Source: Minisyncoccota bacterium
GTDB lineage: Bacteria; Patescibacteriota; Minisyncoccia; UBA6257; UBA9933
Direction: 5' to 3'
Assembly (NCBI GenBank): GCA_041653755.1
Contig: JBAZEU010000002.1
Location: 16,707 to 80,706 of the forward strand
DNA length: 64,000 bases
In this document: positions 4,073 to 37,696 of the stretch, piece after piece
Numbering within the stretch: the first letter of the stretch is position 1
Layout: each line of letters begins with the position of its first letter
Notes under the pieces: generated by a model
What the model was told of the DNA's origin: nothing
Databases searched by the model: none
What the model saw: the letters and a program-made list of their open reading frames with translations, nothing else
Position numbers and translations under genes: made by a program

Positions 4073-4370
4073 TAATTTGTATATGAAGATATTGTTATAC
4101 ATATTCAGCGGATGAAACACTCAGGCGTCTTATATTTTGCTTGAAGGTGTCCGCTAGATTGGCGGATTTTTTGTTGAAATGATGAACGGAAAGCTGTTTG
4201 AAAATTTAATAAAAGTTTTTATTCCGACTCGAGCGTGTGGAGTAAAAACTTTGCTAAGCATATATTTGTTATCTGTGCTTGGCACCCGAATTTGTTTCCG
4301 CCACATGCGGAGTAACAAATTCGGCAGAATAATATATTCGATATCTCGTTTCCTGAAAAATTTTAGGGAA

Positions 4371-7803
<3,433 letters not shown>

Positions 7804-7919
7804 TCCCTAAATTTTTCAGGAAACGAGAGAGCGAATATATTAAATTTTCAAACCAGAGCACAAAACAAGATTTTGTGCTCGGCCGAACACATAAAGATAT
7901 GTGCTCCGGTTTTAAAAAA

Positions 7920-19864: not shown

Positions 19865-20463
19865 AATTTTTTATCTAATATCAAATATTTTATGAATTCT
19901 TTTCCAAACTCAGTTACTTTCACAAAAGGAGCAGCGATAGGGCCAACTCTGGATGAGTAATCTGACATCAATATTCCAGCAGTGACTAAATCATAAACAA
20001 GTTCATTTTTATTTTTAGTCTGTTCATAAATTTGATGGAAATCAGTCTTAGAAGTATCTACATCTCTCAAGACTACAAAATCATCAGCATTCAGAATACT
20101 TAAGATATGATACATCCTTTCCAACTCAAATCTATTCTGGTTATCAGATTGAGCAAAGCCCAGAAAAATAGCTCGCATCATTTTTCTTTTTTCTTCGTTT
20201 TTTTCACGAATATATCTCTCCAGAGCATACACAAATCCATCTTGAAATTTCGCATCTCTAAGAATGATCTCGGTGAAAGCTGACGGATTATCCTTAACCA
20301 TCTCAACCCATTCAAGCGCTCTCTGCTCACGAAGTTTCAAGCCCGCACCATATAAAGCCTTACTTAGACCCCAGGCTATATTCAGCCCAGGCAACGCCGA
20401 AGCGATTTGATCAGCGATGACTAATGCGGAGTCTTTTATAATTTGTTTATCTTTTTCGTTCAT
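19861..20463 (-). CDS. hypothetical protein, partner of the Mrr-domain fusion protein
   Basis: 200 aa; start overlaps the upstream gene's stop by 4 nt; no recognisable domain. Confidence 0.55.
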   Translation of the reverse strand: MNEKDKQIIKDSALVIADQIASALPGLNIAWGLSKALYGAGLKLREQRALEWVEMVKDNPSAFTEIILRDAKFQDGFVYALERYIREKNEEKRKMMRAIFLGFAQSDNQNRFELERMYHILSILNADDFVVLRDVDTSKTDFHQIYEQTKNKNELVYDLVTAGILMSDYSSRVGPIAAPFVKVTEFGKEFIKYLILDKKL

Positions 20464-21968
20464 GACTTTTTATTTTTAGATTTCTCTCTTTCAATAACAA
20501 AATCGTAGGTTTTCTTAAACTCATAAACATTCAGGGTTGCCTTTTTATCTGCTTCTTGTCCGATCTGCCGTTCTATCATCCATTGTTCTTCAGGATTTTT
20601 CTTAAGATAGTCTCCTAATTTTTCGCTTTCTGCATGTGTAATTTGGAGATAATATTTTGTGCTGCCTTCAGCGTCTTTATTAAGAATTAAGACTACATCT
20701 TTTGGTTTTAAGAAATTATACCGACCATCACATTCATAAAGGGTATTAAATGATTCATTGCCATGTTTAAGCATGTTAAAATCTGGATCATTTAGGGTTA
20801 TTCCTTTTTCTTCATGAATCGTTCCGATGGTGGGACTTGGAAAAGATTCTGTAAATTTTTTTACACGCTTATAGCCATCCAGAGATTGCTGTCTTTTTTT
20901 AACCTCCAAATATTCATAAGTGCCAGCAATTGGGCCAGTCTTAAAATCAAAATCAACAAATATGTGCGGGAAGTTATGCCATCCATCACCCTTATCGTCT
21001 ATAACCAGCATCTCATCATATCGAATTAACCCGTTACTAAAAAATGTTGCCTGGTGGCGATGGGGCAAATGTTCCCAAAAATCTTCAACCTTATCACGGA
21101 TTTCCTGTTGTTTAGTTCTTTCTTCATGGGAGTCACTATCTCGAAAAACAAGATCGGCGACTCCCGTAAAATCAAACTCTTTCTTTTCTATATCGATATA
21201 AGCAAAATGCTTACGTAAATTTACTATGATTCCAAGAGGATGATATTGAATAAACCTGTATTCGCGCCATCGGGGATGTTCGCCAAAATCTTTATACCCA
21301 TTCTTGTAAGGATATTTCGAATCCTTTGAATCTCGAAGCAAAATTGATTTATAAAAGTCGTTACCCTCGCCGAATGTTCTGTATAACTTATTTTTGCATG
21401 CTACAACCTGCCTTATTTCCGTGGCCCGTGACCGTCTTTTACTAACTAACGAAATTCCAAAAAAGGTAAAAAGAATGCGATCATTTTTTGGGAGATAGAG
21501 CATATCCTCAAGCTCCGCCTTTCCCCAAAGATAAAATTCCATTACGCCTTTGTTCCGCAGCTCTTCTCGAAACGCATCATAAGAATCTTTGGAAAAATTT
21601 GAAGAAGCGGCCAGAATGTATCCGTATGGAGGATTTTTAGAATCAACATCAGAAAGAATTTCTTTTACTCGTTTCGGGCCTATTTCTTTCTCTCTTTTTC
21701 CTTGAATCATCCAAAGATTACCTTCCATAGGGTGTTTTTCTTCTGCCTCGTCACTTACCTCATCGTTTTCAGGCTGGGAATTTTTATAAACTTTTTCATG
21801 GGCGCGGATGTCAAAACCTTCGTCATTTCCGCTCCTGCCAGTTGCTTCGATAGTTTGCCAATCTTTGTAGTCGTAAATAAGCTCTCGAATTAAATCTTCG
21901 AATCGATGAGGGTCTAAATCTTCAAAATGTATTGGCCCGTATGTTCTTGTGACTCTTGATTTCGCCAT
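20460..21968 (-). CDS. Mrr-type restriction-endonuclease (PD-(D/E)xK) N-terminal domain fused to a large unknown C-terminal domain
   Basis: FEDLIRELIY ... TGRSGNDEGFDIRA ... LWMIQGKRE ... GYILAASSNFS matches the Mrr_cat core (D ... QxK); roughly 330 aa C-terminal region unrecognised; start at internal ATG MAKSRV. Confidence 0.65.
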   Translation of the reverse strand: MAKSRVTRTYGPIHFEDLDPHRFEDLIRELIYDYKDWQTIEATGRSGNDEGFDIRAHEKVYKNSQPENDEVSDEAEEKHPMEGNLWMIQGKREKEIGPKRVKEILSDVDSKNPPYGYILAASSNFSKDSYDAFREELRNKGVMEFYLWGKAELEDMLYLPKNDRILFTFFGISLVSKRRSRATEIRQVVACKNKLYRTFGEGNDFYKSILLRDSKDSKYPYKNGYKDFGEHPRWREYRFIQYHPLGIIVNLRKHFAYIDIEKKEFDFTGVADLVFRDSDSHEERTKQQEIRDKVEDFWEHLPHRHQATFFSNGLIRYDEMLVIDDKGDGWHNFPHIFVDFDFKTGPIAGTYEYLEVKKRQQSLDGYKRVKKFTESFPSPTIGTIHEEKGITLNDPDFNMLKHGNESFNTLYECDGRYNFLKPKDVVLILNKDAEGSTKYYLQITHAESEKLGDYLKKNPEEQWMIERQIGQEADKKATLNVYEFKKTYDFVIEREKSKNKKS

Positions 21969-21978
21969 ATTAAACTTG

Positions 21979-22167
21979 CTATTTGTTTTTCTTATTACTT
22001 GTCTTCTCCAAAAAAGCGTGCAAATCTGATTCCTTGATTCTCCAAACCCCAATCTTAGATGCCTTTAACTTTCCAGATTCAATATACCGAGTTACCGATC
22101 GACCACTGACTCTCAGGATTTTTGCTACTTCGGGAATCGTGAGAAGTTTTTCCATTTTGGAATTCAT
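21979..22167 (-). CDS. excisionase/AlpA-type helix-turn-helix DNA-binding protein
   Basis: 62 aa; LLTIPEVAKILRVSGRSVTRYIESGKL ... IGVWRIKESDL is a classic Xis-family HTH. Confidence 0.7.
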   Translation of the reverse strand: MNSKMEKLLTIPEVAKILRVSGRSVTRYIESGKLKASKIGVWRIKESDLHAFLEKTSNKKNK

Positions 22168-22199
22168 AAAATTTATTGACTATTGATACGTCCATTGTA

Positions 22200-22258
22200 G
22201 CTCTACAAATCTTTGTTGTCAAAGTTGGCATTTTTTGTCATAATGGAAATAAATTACA
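22200..22258 (+). promoter_or_regulatory. divergent promoter region (TTGTCA, 17 nt, CATAAT for the plus gene; TTGACT on the facing strand)
   Basis: Hexamers seen in the 97-nt divergent intergenic region. Confidence 0.35.
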
Positions 22259-25687: not shown

Positions 25688-26376
25688 CGAGAGAAATAAT
25701 ACCAATTAAAAATAATAGCTTGAACCTCGACAACCCAGAGGATAGATTAATTTTTTACAAAGAAACCCTAAGCAAGATTACGAGCGTATTTTTTGACCCG
25801 CAAAAAATGGACGAAATCTATAAAGGGTTTGAAGAAATAGCAGAGCTTAGACGCAAGGCAAAAACAGAAAAAGAAGAAAAAGCACTAAACCAGAGATCGC
25901 TTAAACTAAGCCAGCAGGCCGCTCACATAAAATTGTATCCCTGGGAGAACCTGCTCCCGCTTGCCCTTAGCGGCAAAGAAGATATAACACCCGTCTCAGA
26001 AATGCGCAGCTCGCTCATTGACGAATACTGCCCGAAGACTCCAACCGAATTGGCCTTGATAGAAACCATCGCCATTGCCCATTATAACTTCATAAGAAAT
26101 ACGGGGGTTTTGAATACGCACCTGATGACCAAAGACGAAACTTCGAGAACGCTCCATTTTGACTCACTACAGATGAAAGCAGCAAAAGAAGCTGCAAAAG
26201 CCGTTGATCTTGCTTACAGGCAATTCACCAATTCAATTATGCTCCTGAAAGAACTGAGACAACCGAAATTAAATATCCATGTCAAAACCGAGAACGCTTA
26301 TCTTGCCAAAAATCAGCAGGTAATCAATGTCAAAAAATCAAACAGAAAAAAGGAGAAAATCATTAATGCCAAATGA
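25684..26376 (+). CDS. hypothetical protein
   Basis: 230 aa ORF translationally coupled to the primase. Confidence 0.5.
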   Translation: MTREIIPIKNNSLNLDNPEDRLIFYKETLSKITSVFFDPQKMDEIYKGFEEIAELRRKAKTEKEEKALNQRSLKLSQQAAHIKLYPWENLLPLALSGKEDITPVSEMRSSLIDEYCPKTPTELALIETIAIAHYNFIRNTGVLNTHLMTKDETSRTLHFDSLQMKAAKEAAKAVDLAYRQFTNSIMLLKELRQPKLNIHVKTENAYLAKNQQVINVKKSNRKKEKIINAK

Positions 26377-26707
26377 TTTCGGAAAAAAATATATGAGAAC
26401 CCTCATCGAACAATGCCAAAAAATCAATATCGACAGCCTGCTAAAAGACATAAAGGCCGAGATCAAGGAGTTGCGCCTGAAGATAAAGCTGAAGGAATTC
26501 GGACAGAAGATTGAAATAACTTCAACGCCTTGCTACTTCGGCGAAGAAAGATATTGGTTTATCTGCCCGAAATGCAGGAAACGAGCAGGAACTCTGTATA
26601 AGCCACCGACTCAAGACATCTTCCTTTGCCGAAAATGCCACGACTTAAAATACATGAGTTCCAGTCATCATCGAATGTTCGAAGAAAAATTAACCAAAGG
26701 CTTATAG
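26366..26707 (+). CDS. zinc-ribbon protein (C-x2-C ... C-x2-C)
   Basis: ATG after AAAAGGAG; CPKCRKR ... CRKCHD. Confidence 0.5.
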   Translation: MPNDFGKKYMRTLIEQCQKINIDSLLKDIKAEIKELRLKIKLKEFGQKIEITSTPCYFGEERYWFICPKCRKRAGTLYKPPTQDIFLCRKCHDLKYMSSSHHRMFEEKLTKGL

Positions 26708-26712
26708 CACAT

Positions 26713-26741
26713 TGAGAAATCAGACAAAATGAGGTAAAATA
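26713..26741 (+). promoter_or_regulatory. sigma70-type promoter
   Basis: TTGAGA, 17-nt spacer, TAAAAT. Confidence 0.5.
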
Positions 26742-26747
26742 TAATTG

Positions 26748-26896
26748 CGTCCTACAAGTTTGAATATCTGCACAGGGTGATTGCTTCTTTTGAAGCCCAA
26801 TTGCGGGCTGAAAGGGGCGACTATCCTCCACAATTGGTTGCCTTGTGCAATTCAATCTTGTGGGACGCAGGCTCTGGTCGTCCCTTTTTGTTTTAT
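26748..26896 (+). ncRNA. candidate small RNA or cis-regulatory leader (about 145 nt) with its own promoter and intrinsic terminator
   Basis: Promoter at 26713-26741; internal hairpins such as gcccaattgcgggc; terminator gggacg ... cgtccc plus tttttgttttattt at 26862-26896; no plausible ORF. Confidence 0.4.
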
Positions 26897-26961
26897 TTGA
26901 CTTCCTTAAACCTTTGGCCCATGTATGTGTGTAGAGCAATACAATTAAAAGTTTACATAAT

Positions 26962-27996
26962 ATGACAAGACCATTAAACACAAAAATATTAATATTAAGC
27001 ATTAGCGGAATAGTCCTGCTGACTTTGACGGCAATCGGGCTATTCGCATACTTCTCACTCTTTGGCGCACCGCAAACAAAAGCTGAGCCAGAAAGATTCA
27101 TCGTCTCAATGAATCAATCAAAACAAGACCTAATCGCAAAACTCCACGAGCAAGGATTTATCAAAAGCGAGTGGGGTTTTAATTATGCGCTTGAAGGAAA
27201 CGACATCCAGCCAGGCGGATACAAAATCTCAAAAAGCATGACGGCCTGGGAGATGGCGAAAGCACTTAAAGAACCTTACATGAAATGGGTCGTAATTCCC
27301 GAAGGATTAAGAAAAGAACAGATCGGAGAACTTATCGGTGATGCGCTTAGTTGGAACGAACAGCAAAAGAAAGACTGGGCCGTGAAGTATACAGCAATGG
27401 CTTACGACCAGCTGGAAGGCATTTACTTTCCTGACACATATCTCCTTCCGAAGGACGAAACAGTGCTCCAGATTTCTGATCGGCTGAGAGCTAAATTCAA
27501 TGAAAAATTTAAGCCTTATGCCAACAAATTTGTGACAGCTAATATCCAATGGACAACGGCATTAAAGCTTGCCTCAATCGTCCAAAGAGAAGCAGCTGGC
27601 AAGAGCGATATGCCACTCGTGGCAGGAATTCTCTGGAACAGATTATTAAAAGGAATGAAGCTCGAAGCTGACGACACAATCCAATACATCCGAGACGACG
27701 TGATCCATTACGGCGAAGCCAGATTTGATGCACAGCCAAAAAATTATACCAGCAAGGGAGATTGGTGGAAGCCAATAAAATTGGCCGATAAACAGATCGA
27801 GTCGCCTTATAACACATACAGAAATAAAGGACTTCCACCTCATCCAATCTGCAACCCAGGCCTGGATGCAATCGATGCGGTGTTAAACTCGGCCGACACT
27901 GAATGTCTTTATTATCTGCACGATTCAAGTGGACAAATTCACTGCGCCAAAACCTACGAGGAACACAAGGCCAACATTGAAAAATATTTGAAATAA
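26962..27996 (+). CDS. mltG: MltG/YceG-family endolytic transglycosylase (island copy)
   Basis: N-terminal TM, YceG-like domain; C-terminal YNTYRNKGLPPHPICNPG shared with the paralog at 40100. Confidence 0.75.
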   Translation: MTRPLNTKILILSISGIVLLTLTAIGLFAYFSLFGAPQTKAEPERFIVSMNQSKQDLIAKLHEQGFIKSEWGFNYALEGNDIQPGGYKISKSMTAWEMAKALKEPYMKWVVIPEGLRKEQIGELIGDALSWNEQQKKDWAVKYTAMAYDQLEGIYFPDTYLLPKDETVLQISDRLRAKFNEKFKPYANKFVTANIQWTTALKLASIVQREAAGKSDMPLVAGILWNRLLKGMKLEADDTIQYIRDDVIHYGEARFDAQPKNYTSKGDWWKPIKLADKQIESPYNTYRNKGLPPHPICNPGLDAIDAVLNSADTECLYYLHDSSGQIHCAKTYEEHKANIEKYLK

Positions 27997-27998
27997 CT

Positions 27999-29723
27999 AT
28001 GGAAAAGCCAGCTCAAAAAATTAAATACTTCCTCTACGCAAGAAAATCATCGGAGAGCGAGGATCGGCAGGTTCAATCCATTGATGACCAGATCGACCGC
28101 CTAAAAGAACTTGCCAGAGATTTGAGCTTGGATATCAAGAAAATATATAAGGAGTCGAAATCAGCAAAAAAGCCAGACAACAGGCCATTGTTTGACGAAA
28201 TGATTCAACGTATTGAAGAAGGTGAGGCTGACGGCATTTTATGCTGGCAAATTAATCGACTCTCAAGAAATCCTATTGATAGCGGAAAGCTAAGCTGGCT
28301 TTTGCAGCAGGGCACGCTTAAATCAATTCAGACCATAGATCGGCAATATCTTCCAGACGATAACGTTATTCTCTTCAGCGTTGAAAGCGGAACGGCCAAT
28401 CAATATATTCTTGATTTAAGAAAGAATGTAAAACGAGGCCAGGCATCAAAACTGGCCAGAGGTTGGATGCCCGCATGCGCTCCCCAGGGTTACTTAAACA
28501 GCAAGACAAAGGAAAAGGGAGATAACGATATTTTTAAAGACCCAGAACGCTTTCCGATGATACGGAGAATGTGGGATTTAATGCTGACAGGAAATTACAC
28601 ACCCCCTCAAATCGCAAAGATCGCGAACGAGCAATGGGGCTACACAACCAGAAAGACGAAACGATCTGGCGGTAATCCTCTATCAAAAAGTGGAATTTAC
28701 AGAATTCTCACAAACATTTTCTATACAGGAATTATTGATTACGGCGGCCAACAATACGAAGGCAAGCATGAACCGATAATCACACTTGAAGAATACGATC
28801 ACGTGCAGAAGCTTCTTGGGAGAAAAGGCAGACCCAGGGCAAAGAGTCATACCTTCGCCTTTACTGGCTCATTCCGCTGTGCTGAATGCGGTTGCCTTTA
28901 TACAGCCGAAGAAAAACAAAAGCTCATCAAGAAAACTGGCAAAATAAAGGAATACACCTATTATCACTGCACCCGACGCAGAGAAGATTATGATTGTTCG
29001 CAAAAGAAAAGCATCACGCTTGATGATTTGGAATTGAAGATTGAAAAAGAAATCGAGAAATACACGATTCTGCCAGAGTTTCTGCAGTGGGCACTGGAAG
29101 GCTTAAGCAAAAAGAACGACACAGAGATCGAGGACAGAACAAAGATTTACGAAATGCAACACAAAACACTCGTCCAAACTCAGAAAGAACTGGACGAGCT
29201 GACTAAAATGAGGTACCGCCAGCTCATTGATGACGAAACATTTGTCAAAGACAAAAACGAACTATCAACCAAAATCGCCCAATTGAAAAATAAGCTCAGG
29301 GAAACTGAGGCCAGGGCTGAACGCTGGCTTGAATTAACCGAAAATACTTTCAGCTTCGCTACTTACGCACGATCAGCATTTATTAAGGCCAGTGAAATAG
29401 GCAAGGCAGGGTTAGAACTGAAGAAAGAAATACTTCTGGCATTGGGCCAAAGCCCTAAAATTAAAGACGGAGAGCTCGTGATCGAGCCCAATGAATGGTT
29501 TGTGCCAATACAAAAAGGCTATCCTGCACTTGAAAAGAAATACTTAGCGTTAGAACCGACGAAATTGCCACTAAATAAAGCAAAAACAGAGGCTTTGGCC
29601 TCTGTTCGTGCACACTGGCGGAGAGGGAGGGATTCGAACCCTCGGGGCCCTTTCGAACCCAACATCTTAGCAGGATGCTGCTTTAAGCCACTCAGCCACC
29701 TCTCCTTGTTATATCTCGGTTAG
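27999..29723 (+). CDS. large serine recombinase (resolvase N-domain + recombinase domain + zinc ribbon); ORF reads into the tRNA-Ser 3' end
   Basis: YARKSSESEDRQVQSIDDQ with catalytic Ser; CWQINRLSRN (DRLSR-type); zinc ribbon CAECG ... HCTRRREDYDC; the last ~35 codons overlap the tRNA at 29616-29705. Confidence 0.8.
   Translation: MEKPAQKIKYFLYARKSSESEDRQVQSIDDQIDRLKELARDLSLDIKKIYKESKSAKKPDNRPLFDEMIQRIEEGEADGILCWQINRLSRNPIDSGKLSWLLQQGTLKSIQTIDRQYLPDDNVILFSVESGTANQYILDLRKNVKRGQASKLARGWMPACAPQGYLNSKTKEKGDNDIFKDPERFPMIRRMWDLMLTGNYTPPQIAKIANEQWGYTTRKTKRSGGNPLSKSGIYRILTNIFYTGIIDYGGQQYEGKHEPIITLEEYDHVQKLLGRKGRPRAKSHTFAFTGSFRCAECGCLYTAEEKQKLIKKTGKIKEYTYYHCTRRREDYDCSQKKSITLDDLELKIEKEIEKYTILPEFLQWALEGLSKKNDTEIEDRTKIYEMQHKTLVQTQKELDELTKMRYRQLIDDETFVKDKNELSTKIAQLKNKLRETEARAERWLELTENTFSFATYARSAFIKASEIGKAGLELKKEILLALGQSPKIKDGELVIEPNEWFVPIQKGYPALEKKYLALEPTKLPLNKAKTEALASVRAHWRRGRDSNPRGPFEPNILAGCCFKPLSHLSLLYLG
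29616..29705 (-). tRNA. tRNA-Ser (anticodon GCT), type II, CCA encoded
   Basis: Reverse complement GGAGAGGTGGCTGAGTGG ...; anticodon stem CATC/GATG with loop CTGCTAA; long variable arm; GGTTCGAATCC; ends CCA. Confidence 0.8.
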
Positions 29724-29954: not shown

Positions 29955-30082
29955 GTCTTTTATCGGTTTTATACTCAGCCCCAGCCTAAGGCTGGTCCGC
30001 CTCGGGCGGAACCTCTCCTTGTTAAAGCCGACGCTTATTTTTCCTTGTAATTATCTACAATTTCTGCTAATTTTACAAGATA

Positions 30083-37595: not shown

Positions 37596-37696
37596 GGGGC
37601 CTTAGCTCAGTGCTAGAGCGCCATGTTAAACCGTGATAAGAAGGATCACGGTTTGATTTATCGCGGAGGTCGTAGGTTGGATTCCTACAGGCTCCA
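37596..37696 (+). tRNA. atypical 101-nt tRNA-Ala-like gene with a 27-nt perfect hairpin inserted in the anticodon-arm region
   Basis: Acceptor GGGGCCT/AGGCTCC with G3-U70, D-arm GCTCAGTGCTAGAGC, GGAGGTC before T-arm GTAGG-TTGGATT-CCTAC (all Ala-like), but no canonical anticodon arm; 10-bp stem AAACCGTGAT/ATCACGGTTT with loop AAGAAGG at 37634-37660. Confidence 0.45.

Follow-up and report, generated by a model that had tools for sequence, protein, structure and literature searches.

A family of structured RNAs, probably 5′ leaders, linked to large serine recombinase genes of Patescibacteria mobile elements, with a proposed two-state fold

In this study, we analyzed a 64,000-nt stretch of a Minisyncoccota bacterium genome (GCA_041653755.1, contig JBAZEU010000002.1), in the following called the window, with a focus on a candidate structured RNA encoded on its plus strand. 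The RNA region sits between a gene for a 126-aa protein with a CxxC...CxxC zinc ribbon (26327–26707, +), which later served as a handle for finding related loci, and mltG (26962–27996, +), inside an island of about 7.5 kb with a GC content above that of the surrounding DNA. Further genes of the island are a DUF5659 gene, a Toprim primase-helicase gene, two unknown genes, and the gene of a large serine recombinase (integrase). The cargo gene mltG (mltG/YceG; PF02618, E = 8.8e-69) is the first gene 3′ of the RNA. It is followed by the recombinase gene (27999–29723, +), whose product matches the Pfam families Resolvase, Recombinase and Zn_ribbon_recom as well as the PHROG integrase family phrog_95. 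Only 2 nt separate the mltG stop from the recombinase start (TAA-CT-ATG) and the two genes are coupled. Searches of the neighboring genes against Pfam and PHROG gave no hint of a regulator.

Upstream of the RNA, a promoter scan called a sigma-70-type promoter (predicted; TTGAGA-17-TAAAAT, 26712–26740, score 10/12) with the −35 box TTGAGA at 26712–26717, a 17-nt spacer, and the −10 box TAAAAT at 26735–26740. The called −10 box is overlapped by a perfect TATAAT at 26740–26745, so that the promoter region as a whole covers 26712–26745 (+). In every homologue described below, a TATAAT-like −10 box lies 4–6 nt 5′ of the first helix (P1). The well-spaced promoter of an original prediction for this region, which had been made by reading the sequence, was thereby recovered by the scan and by the equal spacing among homologues. 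Transcription would start at about 26746–47, the first nucleotide of P1.

The RNA itself, from this putative start to the U-tract (26746–26893, +), was assigned to type A of the family described here based on its fold z-score, homology and covariation. For the 156 nt following the promoter, the minimum free energy (MFE) is −65.4 kcal/mol compared to −41.3 ± 3.7 kcal/mol in dinucleotide shuffles (z = −6.56), and the GC content of the RNA is 0.47 compared to about 0.40 nearby. Together with the covarying homologues, this bears out the structured, GC-richer RNA of about 145 nt that had been proposed. The several local hairpins ascribed to it did not hold up, as the fold combines a single long, nested hairpin with a long-range helix. 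The hairpin given as an example, gcccaattgcgggc, is indeed part of the single-sequence MFE structure, but it competes with P3, the helix showing compensatory changes; it was rejected as a conserved pairing, since the homologues conserve P3 instead. No match to Rfam 15 (4227 models, among them riboswitches, ribozymes, small RNAs and the T-box) was found at 26.7–26.9 kb at the gathering score. Even with E values up to 10, the best matches were at chance level (MIR398 with 15 bits; HPnc0260 with 25 bits vs. a threshold of 59), and a scan of eight homologous loci gave no match on the RNA either. This agrees with the original prediction, in which no TPP, SRP, 6S or tmRNA consensus had been recognized by eye.

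Four helices could be defined in the window, all on the plus strand. The outer helix P1 is formed by 26747–26765 (GCGUCCUACAAG-U-UUGAAU) and 26850–26868 (AUUCAA-U-CUUGUGGGACGC), with 18 of 19 positions paired. It is followed by P2, in which UGCACAGGG (26769–26777) pairs with CCUUGUGCA (26841–26849) at all nine positions. The pyrimidine/U-rich joint J2, UGAUUGCUUCUUUUGAAGC (26778–26796), connects the 5′ strands of P2 and P3. P3 consists of CCAAUUG (26797–26803) and CAAUUGG (26831–26837), is paired at 7/7 positions, and closes a loop of 27 nt. This loop contains the 5′ strand of a long-range pseudoknot helix (PK), GAAAGGGGCGAC (26810–26821), which pairs at 12/12 positions with the 3′ strand GUCGUCCCUUUU (26877–26888) running straight into the U-tract. 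In the single-sequence MFE structure, GCUUCUUUU of J2 pairs with GAAAGGGGC, i.e. with the 5′ strand of PK. A U-run at the position of J2 is nearly invariant across the family, and J2 may serve as an anti-PK element according to this folding model. The loci L002, L029 and L019 (related loci are numbered with an L here) share the window architecture with other sequences. The outer stem of L002 is GCGUCCCAUAUUACCGA/UCGGUAAUGUGGGACGC instead of GCGUCCUACAAG.../...CUUGUGGGACGC, and its P2 is GUCAUGAGGAC/GUCCUCGUGAC, while the equivalents of P3 are CCGAUUG/CAAUCGG in L002, CUUUUAGUG/CACUAAAGG in L029 and CCUGUUAU/AUAACAGG in L019.

Homologues were collected in several ways. For this, mltG was a poor handle, as its sole viral relative (L001, 45% identity) is not preceded by such an RNA. 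The zinc-ribbon protein as query gave no match in viral contigs and ten relatives in the protein database, whose contigs provided the first homologous intergenic elements; more distant versions are located at the same position in L008, L011 and L013. Further members were obtained by scans of metagenome and genome contigs with protein alignment, by iterative nhmmer searches, and by two PK-derived DNA patterns applied to IMG/VR. These two patterns recovered L016, L018, L019 and seven more true members. The seven matches to another DNA pattern, GCGGGCTGAAAGGGGC, were all unrelated, and none of the 51 matches to a terminator-like DNA pattern (GGGACGC...GTCCCTTTTTG) was homologous. The number of members grew from 23 to 30 distinct sequences, which come from metagenome-assembled genomes (MAGs) of Patescibacteria, from metagenomes, and in ten cases from IMG/VR contigs. 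All named genome hosts belong to the Patescibacteria (Parcubacteria, Saccharibacteria, and MAGs named "Patescibacteria group").

The members share the same order of elements from 5′ to 3′: the −10 box, P1, a variable joint, P2, a U- or pyrimidine-rich joint, P3, the return strands, and a 3′ tail, which begins directly after the return strand of P1 or after a linker of 3–8 nt. The P3 loop has a length of 19–27 nt across the family and holds 12–18 nt of the PK strand. Thus, PK comprises 12–18 bp between a purine-rich strand in the P3 loop and the pyrimidine-rich 3′ tail, with AAAGGGGC/GUCCCUUU as its core across the family.

Plain MAFFT alignments were structurally inconsistent between the subtypes. 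Instead, a covariance model and a hand-curated alignment were used. The covariance model was based on eight close members and on the helices P1, P2 and P3 only, leaving out PK, and aligned 25 sequences (alignment A7). In A7, 93.7% of the cells are standard pairs and 36 of the 47 pairs change on both sides, values which have to be compared with 0 of 500 shuffles reaching any of five measures, and with only 32–53% paired cells when the partners were slid by 1–3 columns. Changes on both sides were found for 11/12 pairs of P1, 8/8 of P2, 10/11 of P3, and 7/16 of PK. The cells of PK are paired to 94.8%, and this pairing is not a product of fitting, because PK had been left out of the covariance model. 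For the whole-family alignment A9, the sequences of the window, L027, L002, L029 and L019 were added by hand and padded with N, and were left unchanged by MAFFT. In A9, pairing amounts to 94.5% of the cells, and changes on both sides were found for 46 of 58 pairs (P1, 16/20; P2, 10/11; P3, 11/11). The proposed search for covariation in homologous intergenic regions thereby gave a positive outcome, with compensatory changes beyond those in the shuffles and the slid controls. A real RNA with a conserved secondary structure is well supported by these comparisons.

With respect to the strand, 48 G.U cells compared to 21 A.C cells point to the plus strand, and the MFE of the minus strand is about 9 kcal/mol weaker. 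This bears on the question whether the element could act as DNA, for example as a recombination site, a cruciform, or a single-strand origin for the primase of the island. In favor of this, a long inverted repeat is located beside replication and recombination genes, and the minus strand also folds well (z = −6.5). Nevertheless, we consider a DNA-level element highly improbable. G.U pairs are frequent, and one of them inside PK is kept in 26 of the 30 sequences, although it would be a C.A mismatch on the other strand. Also, the crossing PK, the fixed promoter, and the fixed orientation towards the downstream open reading frame (ORF) fit an RNA. The island ends show no complementarity to the element, which is nearly identical in the window and L027, even though the recombinases abut genes for different transfer RNAs (tRNAs), namely tRNA-Ser and tRNA-Asn. 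A guide RNA for the recombinase similar to bridge RNAs was rejected for the same near-identity of the two RNAs, and because only chance 7–9-mers match the island ends or tRNA-Ser.

The changes also bear on a possible coding function. ORFs of 29–62 codons exist on the plus strand, among them a 62-aa ORF at 26777–26965. However, starts, frames and lengths differ among the homologues, with 1-nt indels even between close relatives, and the substitutions come as couples that preserve base pairs. In addition, there was no Pfam match. A small protein as the function of the region is therefore scarcely credible, in line with the original prediction, in which no ORF had been judged credible.

The gene following the RNA is almost always a large serine recombinase gene. 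In type B members, the recombinase ATG usually follows the CCC in the 3′ strand of PK at a distance of 9–25 nt. The RNA precedes the recombinase in two unrelated backbones, i.e. in islands with primase and zinc-ribbon genes, and in inovirus-like contigs with Zot and Rep genes and without a zinc-ribbon gene. Between RNA and recombinase, cargo can be present: mltG in the window, L002 and L029, a 294-aa ORF in L027, and a 65-aa ORF in some IMG/VR members. As judged from these gene orders, the RNA is tied to the recombinase operon and not to mltG or the zinc-ribbon gene. Structure and linkage are both well supported, and the RNAs represent a new family, not catalogued before, which would provide structured 5′ leaders in integration modules of mobile elements. 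No earlier description of the element was found in the literature searched, which covered few subscription journals.

Some relatives without this RNA carry other leaders 5′ of the recombinase gene, located at 5357–5560 in L107, 2788–2990 in L030, 5315–5500 in L110 (L110/L003), and 349–500 in L052. The leaders of L107/L030 and L110/L003 show the same crossing a-b-a′-b′ pairing, which ends beside the start codon. In L052, the core GGGGCA/UGUCCC is kept, and the recombinase starts about 100 nt past the PK 3′ strand.

Further observations were made on the neighborhoods of the family members. In IMG/VR, the gene order is a small membrane protein, a Zot-like P-loop ATPase (GKPGAGKT), a Rep-like protein of about 260 aa, the RNA, the optional 65-aa ORF, and the recombinase. 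Such inovirus-like modules are present on the contigs L016, L018, L249, L253, L255, L264, L277, L310 and L319 and may be filamentous prophages. In L019 (432–6068; IMG/VR), the RNA is followed by mod (569 aa) and res (774 aa), and a divergent serine recombinase gene is located about 130 nt upstream. In L044, a group I intron match (2689–2961, −; 68.9 bits, E = 7e-16) lies about 1.7 kb 3′ of the leader RNA, in or beside the recombinase region.

At the 3′ end, the window carries the U-tract UUUUUGUUUUAUUU (26885–26898, +). Its U5GU4 is kept in the window, L027, L002 and L029, and directly follows GUCGUCCC in the window. Here, a strong intrinsic terminator had been predicted. The proposed sequence GGGACG/CGUCCC followed by UUUUUGUUUUAUUU is present and can form a local hairpin, T1 (26862–26884, +), with 6 bp between 26862–26867 and 26879–26884 and a loop of 11 nt. 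Its designation as a strong terminator was borne out only in part: T1 was not called by the terminator scan because of its 11-nt loop, it reaches only −8.7 kcal/mol alone, and its CGUCCC strand covaries with 26810–26821. T1 competes with P1 and PK, and a structure forced to contain it is about 9 kcal/mol less stable than the MFE structure and needs an open base of P1. Outside type A, the hairpin is not conserved. Hence, T1 is probably not the relevant pairing of the CGUCCC strand, the covarying partner being the 5′ strand of PK. An alternative stem for the U-tract is the long-range PK of 12 bp with a duplex energy of −23.7 kcal/mol; neither of the two stems is a canonical short-loop hairpin. 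When the cargo exceeds 150 aa (mltG, the 294-aa ORF, the restriction-modification (R-M) genes), the tail continues into U5G plus U-rich sequence and the next ORF follows after 54–93 nt. Several members in which the next ORF begins after just a few nucleotides have a U5 run as well. Beyond the U-tract, the motif TTGACTTCCT (26897–26906, +) resembles a −35 box and is conserved in the window, L027, L002 and L029. In L002 and L029, it is followed after 17 nt by TAATGT as −10 box, while only CATGTA is found at this position in the window.

These features allow the question whether the RNA is a separate unit, that is, a trans-acting small RNA (sRNA) which has its own promoter, ends at the U-tract and pairs elsewhere via its exposed P3 loop. 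In the subtype of the window, promoter, structure and U5GU4 add up to a complete unit, and the −35-like TTGACTTCCT with the TAATGT of L002 and L029 might provide the following gene with a start of its own. Also, the RNA is not in cis with a recombinase in L019, and where cargo separates it from the recombinase, compensatory changes still maintain it. On the other hand, most members have their next ORF 9–25 nt past the 3′ strand, too close for a separate terminator in between. The only conserved complement of the P3 loop lies within the same RNA, and the window contains no second copy of a target-like sequence, including at the recombinase start. In addition, the promoter scan of the window called no promoter 5′ of mltG, i.e. 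between the RNA and this gene. An sRNA does not fit most of the family and is unlikely on balance, although it is conceivable for the subtype of the window, and a cis-acting leader is favored over a separate unit because in most of the 30 homologues the next ATG follows the PK 3′ strand at a distance of 9–25 nt. Of the functions that had been suggested initially, a trans-acting sRNA or a riboswitch or attenuator leader controlling mltG, the cis-acting leader or attenuator is thereby retained, while a metabolite riboswitch (see below) and mltG itself as the controlled unit are not.

How could such a leader act? Since P3 encloses the 5′ strand of PK tightly and PK is longer than one helical turn, P3 and the full PK cannot coexist, and since both helices covary, both states should matter. 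The energies of the hairpin state and of a state with P1, P2 and PK are 2–9 kcal/mol apart in 18 members, before any pseudoknot penalty, and amount to −65 and about −62 kcal/mol in the window. Folding of prefixes of the RNA predicts that the hairpin forms first. Covariation of P3 and PK, near-equal energies, and the location of PK beside the start codon are what one would expect of a bistable leader. We regard it as probable, with modest confidence, that the RNA is a bistable cis-acting leader of the integrase operon, in which PK would be the sequestor or terminator (OFF) and P3 the trap (ON). During transcription, the P3 hairpin would form first and leave the tail free, corresponding to the ON state; once P3 opens, PK would form and switch the leader OFF. 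In the common subtype, PK would cover about −5 to −25 relative to the recombinase start and thereby block translation initiation, with a delay caused by the P3 trap. In the subtype of the window, PK abuts U5GU4 about 75 nt 5′ of mltG and would act as a terminator stem, thereby attenuating read-through into mltG and the recombinase gene. The net effect would be a low and time-limited expression of the integrase operon.

Several points weigh against such a bistable leader. In L019, the sole exception to the linkage, type III R-M genes follow the RNA, and the recombinase gene is divergent. The motif TTGACTTCCT might be a secondary promoter for the cargo gene, which could make the RNA a separate unit. 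The mutual exclusion of P3 and PK is a geometric argument, and P3 could still be compatible with a pseudoknot that forms in part. As an intrinsic terminator, a long-range helix enclosing a structured "loop" of about 55 nt would be atypical. In A9, the type A rows were positioned manually so that they fit the structure. Finally, we infer transcription, the direction of regulation, and kinetic as opposed to factor-driven switching, and the start, the 3′ end and the regulation are predictions from sequence.

Instead of kinetics, the switching could depend on a factor, such as a small molecule, a protein (the recombinase, the zinc-ribbon protein or a directionality factor), temperature, or a ribosome on a leaderless upstream ORF (uORF). 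The two conserved, mutually exclusive and nearly isoenergetic states are consistent with this, and the PK core AAAGGGGC/GUCCCUUU, the fixed G.U and the U-run are conserved beyond the needs of pairing. Many type B RNAs also begin with AUG. However, there is no conserved unpaired core as in metabolite aptamers, the near-invariant positions being located in helices. Furthermore, the IMG/VR members lack the zinc-ribbon gene, neither the 5′ AUG nor the uORF frame is conserved, and there is no Rfam match. A factor-responsive switch thus appears rather improbable. A metabolite-binding riboswitch in particular is unlikely, as all columns that are invariant or nearly so belong to P1, P2 and PK, while the junctions vary in sequence and length except for the U-run. 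Regarding the 5′ ends, most type B RNAs (e.g. L008, 3476; L011, 1221; L013, 644; L037, 3119) have the AUG at their putative transcription start. A leaderless uORF of 24–48 codons through the structure is possible, with a varying start (ACG, GUG, GCG, AUU) and 1-nt indels.

A further explanation is that the RNA is self-cleaving or processed, i.e. a new ribozyme or an RNase III substrate, and thereby sets the stability of the integrase messenger RNA (mRNA). Self-cleaving ribozymes are known from similar mobile-element neighborhoods, and the compact pseudoknot-like topology, the position on a mobile element beside the integrase gene, and the long perfect helices P1-P2 and PK would fit this. We nevertheless regard it as very unlikely, because no known ribozyme family matches even with E values up to 10 and no conserved unpaired nucleotides of a catalytic core are present.

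Returning to the bistable leader of the integrase operon, a tentative extension is that the RNA and the large serine recombinase form a portable module, in which the two-state leader senses something the element needs and is a dedicated regulator of integration and excision. Candidates for what might be sensed are the binding of the recombinase or of a directionality factor to the AAAGGGGC/GUCCCUUU helix with its fixed G.U, or a coupling to transcription or translation when a new host is entered.

Besides the leader, some observations were made on the 3′ ends of the recombinase genes and on other parts of the window. The last approximately 47 codons of the recombinase ORF (window 29584–29723) run antisense through a tRNA-Ser(gct) gene (29616–29705) and its terminator. 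Such an antisense tRNA gene (Asn, Ser, Gln, His, Gly or Glu), located at or just past the 3′ end of the recombinase gene, is present at the majority of the related loci; this arrangement is listed for L027, L037, L041, L108, L039, L111, L112, L038, L019, L004, L005 and L107. It suggests attachment sites inside the tRNA genes that overlap the 3′ end of the integrase gene. In the window, an exact 14-nt direct repeat, ACCTCTCCTTGTTA, is found at 29698–29711 and 30011–30024, with the copies 313 nt apart. It comprises the 5′ end of the tRNA-Ser gene plus upstream bases, and could have been left by a previous integration event or represent a duplicated promoter region. The left edge of the island carries a gene (20460–22052, −) for a 530-aa protein with an Mrr_cat restriction-endonuclease domain, and divergent promoter-like sites (22194–22244) adjoin this gene. 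Outside of these regions, a match to 23S ribosomal RNA (4362–7813) has a length of 3452 nt compared to 2925 nt of the model, corresponding to an insertion of about 500 nt; 23S insertions and introns are common in Patescibacteria. A tRNA match at 37596–37696 (45.6 bits) is unusually long with 101 nt and may carry an intron or a long insertion.

Large serine recombinases drive the integration of phages and islands and are major tools for genome engineering. To our knowledge, it is poorly known how their own expression is limited. If the module of RNA and recombinase is real, large serine integrases would have their first described layer of RNA-based control, and one common to islands of Patescibacteria and inovirus-like elements. 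A two-state leader travelling with the recombinase across unrelated backbones would also offer a compact and testable case of integration control at the RNA level. Patescibacteria are hard to culture, so that comparative evidence is the main route to function. The family would be among the few structured RNA families defined in Patescibacteria (candidate phyla radiation, CPR) and their mobile elements, and its covariance model could be used as a marker for such integration modules in metagenomes.

Several known systems resemble the proposed leader in parts. In the 5′ untranslated region (UTR) of the maturation (A) gene of phage MS2, long-distance pairing to the ribosome-binding region shuts off translation, and a metastable hairpin holding the upstream strand postpones this pairing, resulting in a short burst of translation on the nascent RNA (PMC4615214). 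Similarly, P3 holds the 5′ strand of PK here, and PK covers the region just 5′ of the recombinase ATG. In contrast to MS2, the PK pairing comprises 12–18 bp instead of 7 nt paired to the Shine-Dalgarno (SD) sequence, a C-rich strand and not an SD sequence is located beside the start codon, and the carrier is a DNA mobile element and not an RNA phage. There is no homology in sequence or fold, the subtype of the window seems to use termination at the U-tract and not occlusion of the start site, and the system described here was read from DNA sequence only.

Leaders with terminators and antiterminators are also promoter-proximal and have a GC-rich 3′ strand running into a U-tract. As in attenuators, this 3′ strand has alternative partners (the PK 5′ strand and the P1 3′ strand), and pairing of P3 or J2 could prevent terminator formation. 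Unlike in attenuators and riboswitch platforms, the putative stem spans about 55 nt of structured RNA and not a short loop, and neither a sensing domain, a leader peptide, a conserved aptamer core nor an Rfam match was found.

Among mobile elements, the transposases of IS10 and IS200 are kept at low levels by burying the translation start region, via fold-back inhibition of RNA-IN and via the tnpA 5′ UTR, respectively. These systems use short local stems, in part antisense RNAs, and DDE or HUH transposases, and have no homology to the RNA described here. In the repZ and repA mRNAs of IncIα and IncB plasmids, a hairpin loop pairs with a distant sequence beside the start region. This pseudoknot comprises about 7–8 bp, activates translation, and is blocked by an antisense RNA, whereas the PK described here has 12–18 bp and would repress; no antisense partner was found. 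For the type I toxin mRNAs hok and aapA3, successive co-transcriptional hairpins and a final long-range pairing set the accessibility of the start region (PMC6733600). Antisense RNA and 3′ processing are further parts of these systems, which belong to another gene class and have no homology to the leader described here. Alternative pairing in a leader, as the probable mode of action of the RNA, is thus of a known kind, while the link to large serine recombinases and the design with P3 and PK are new.

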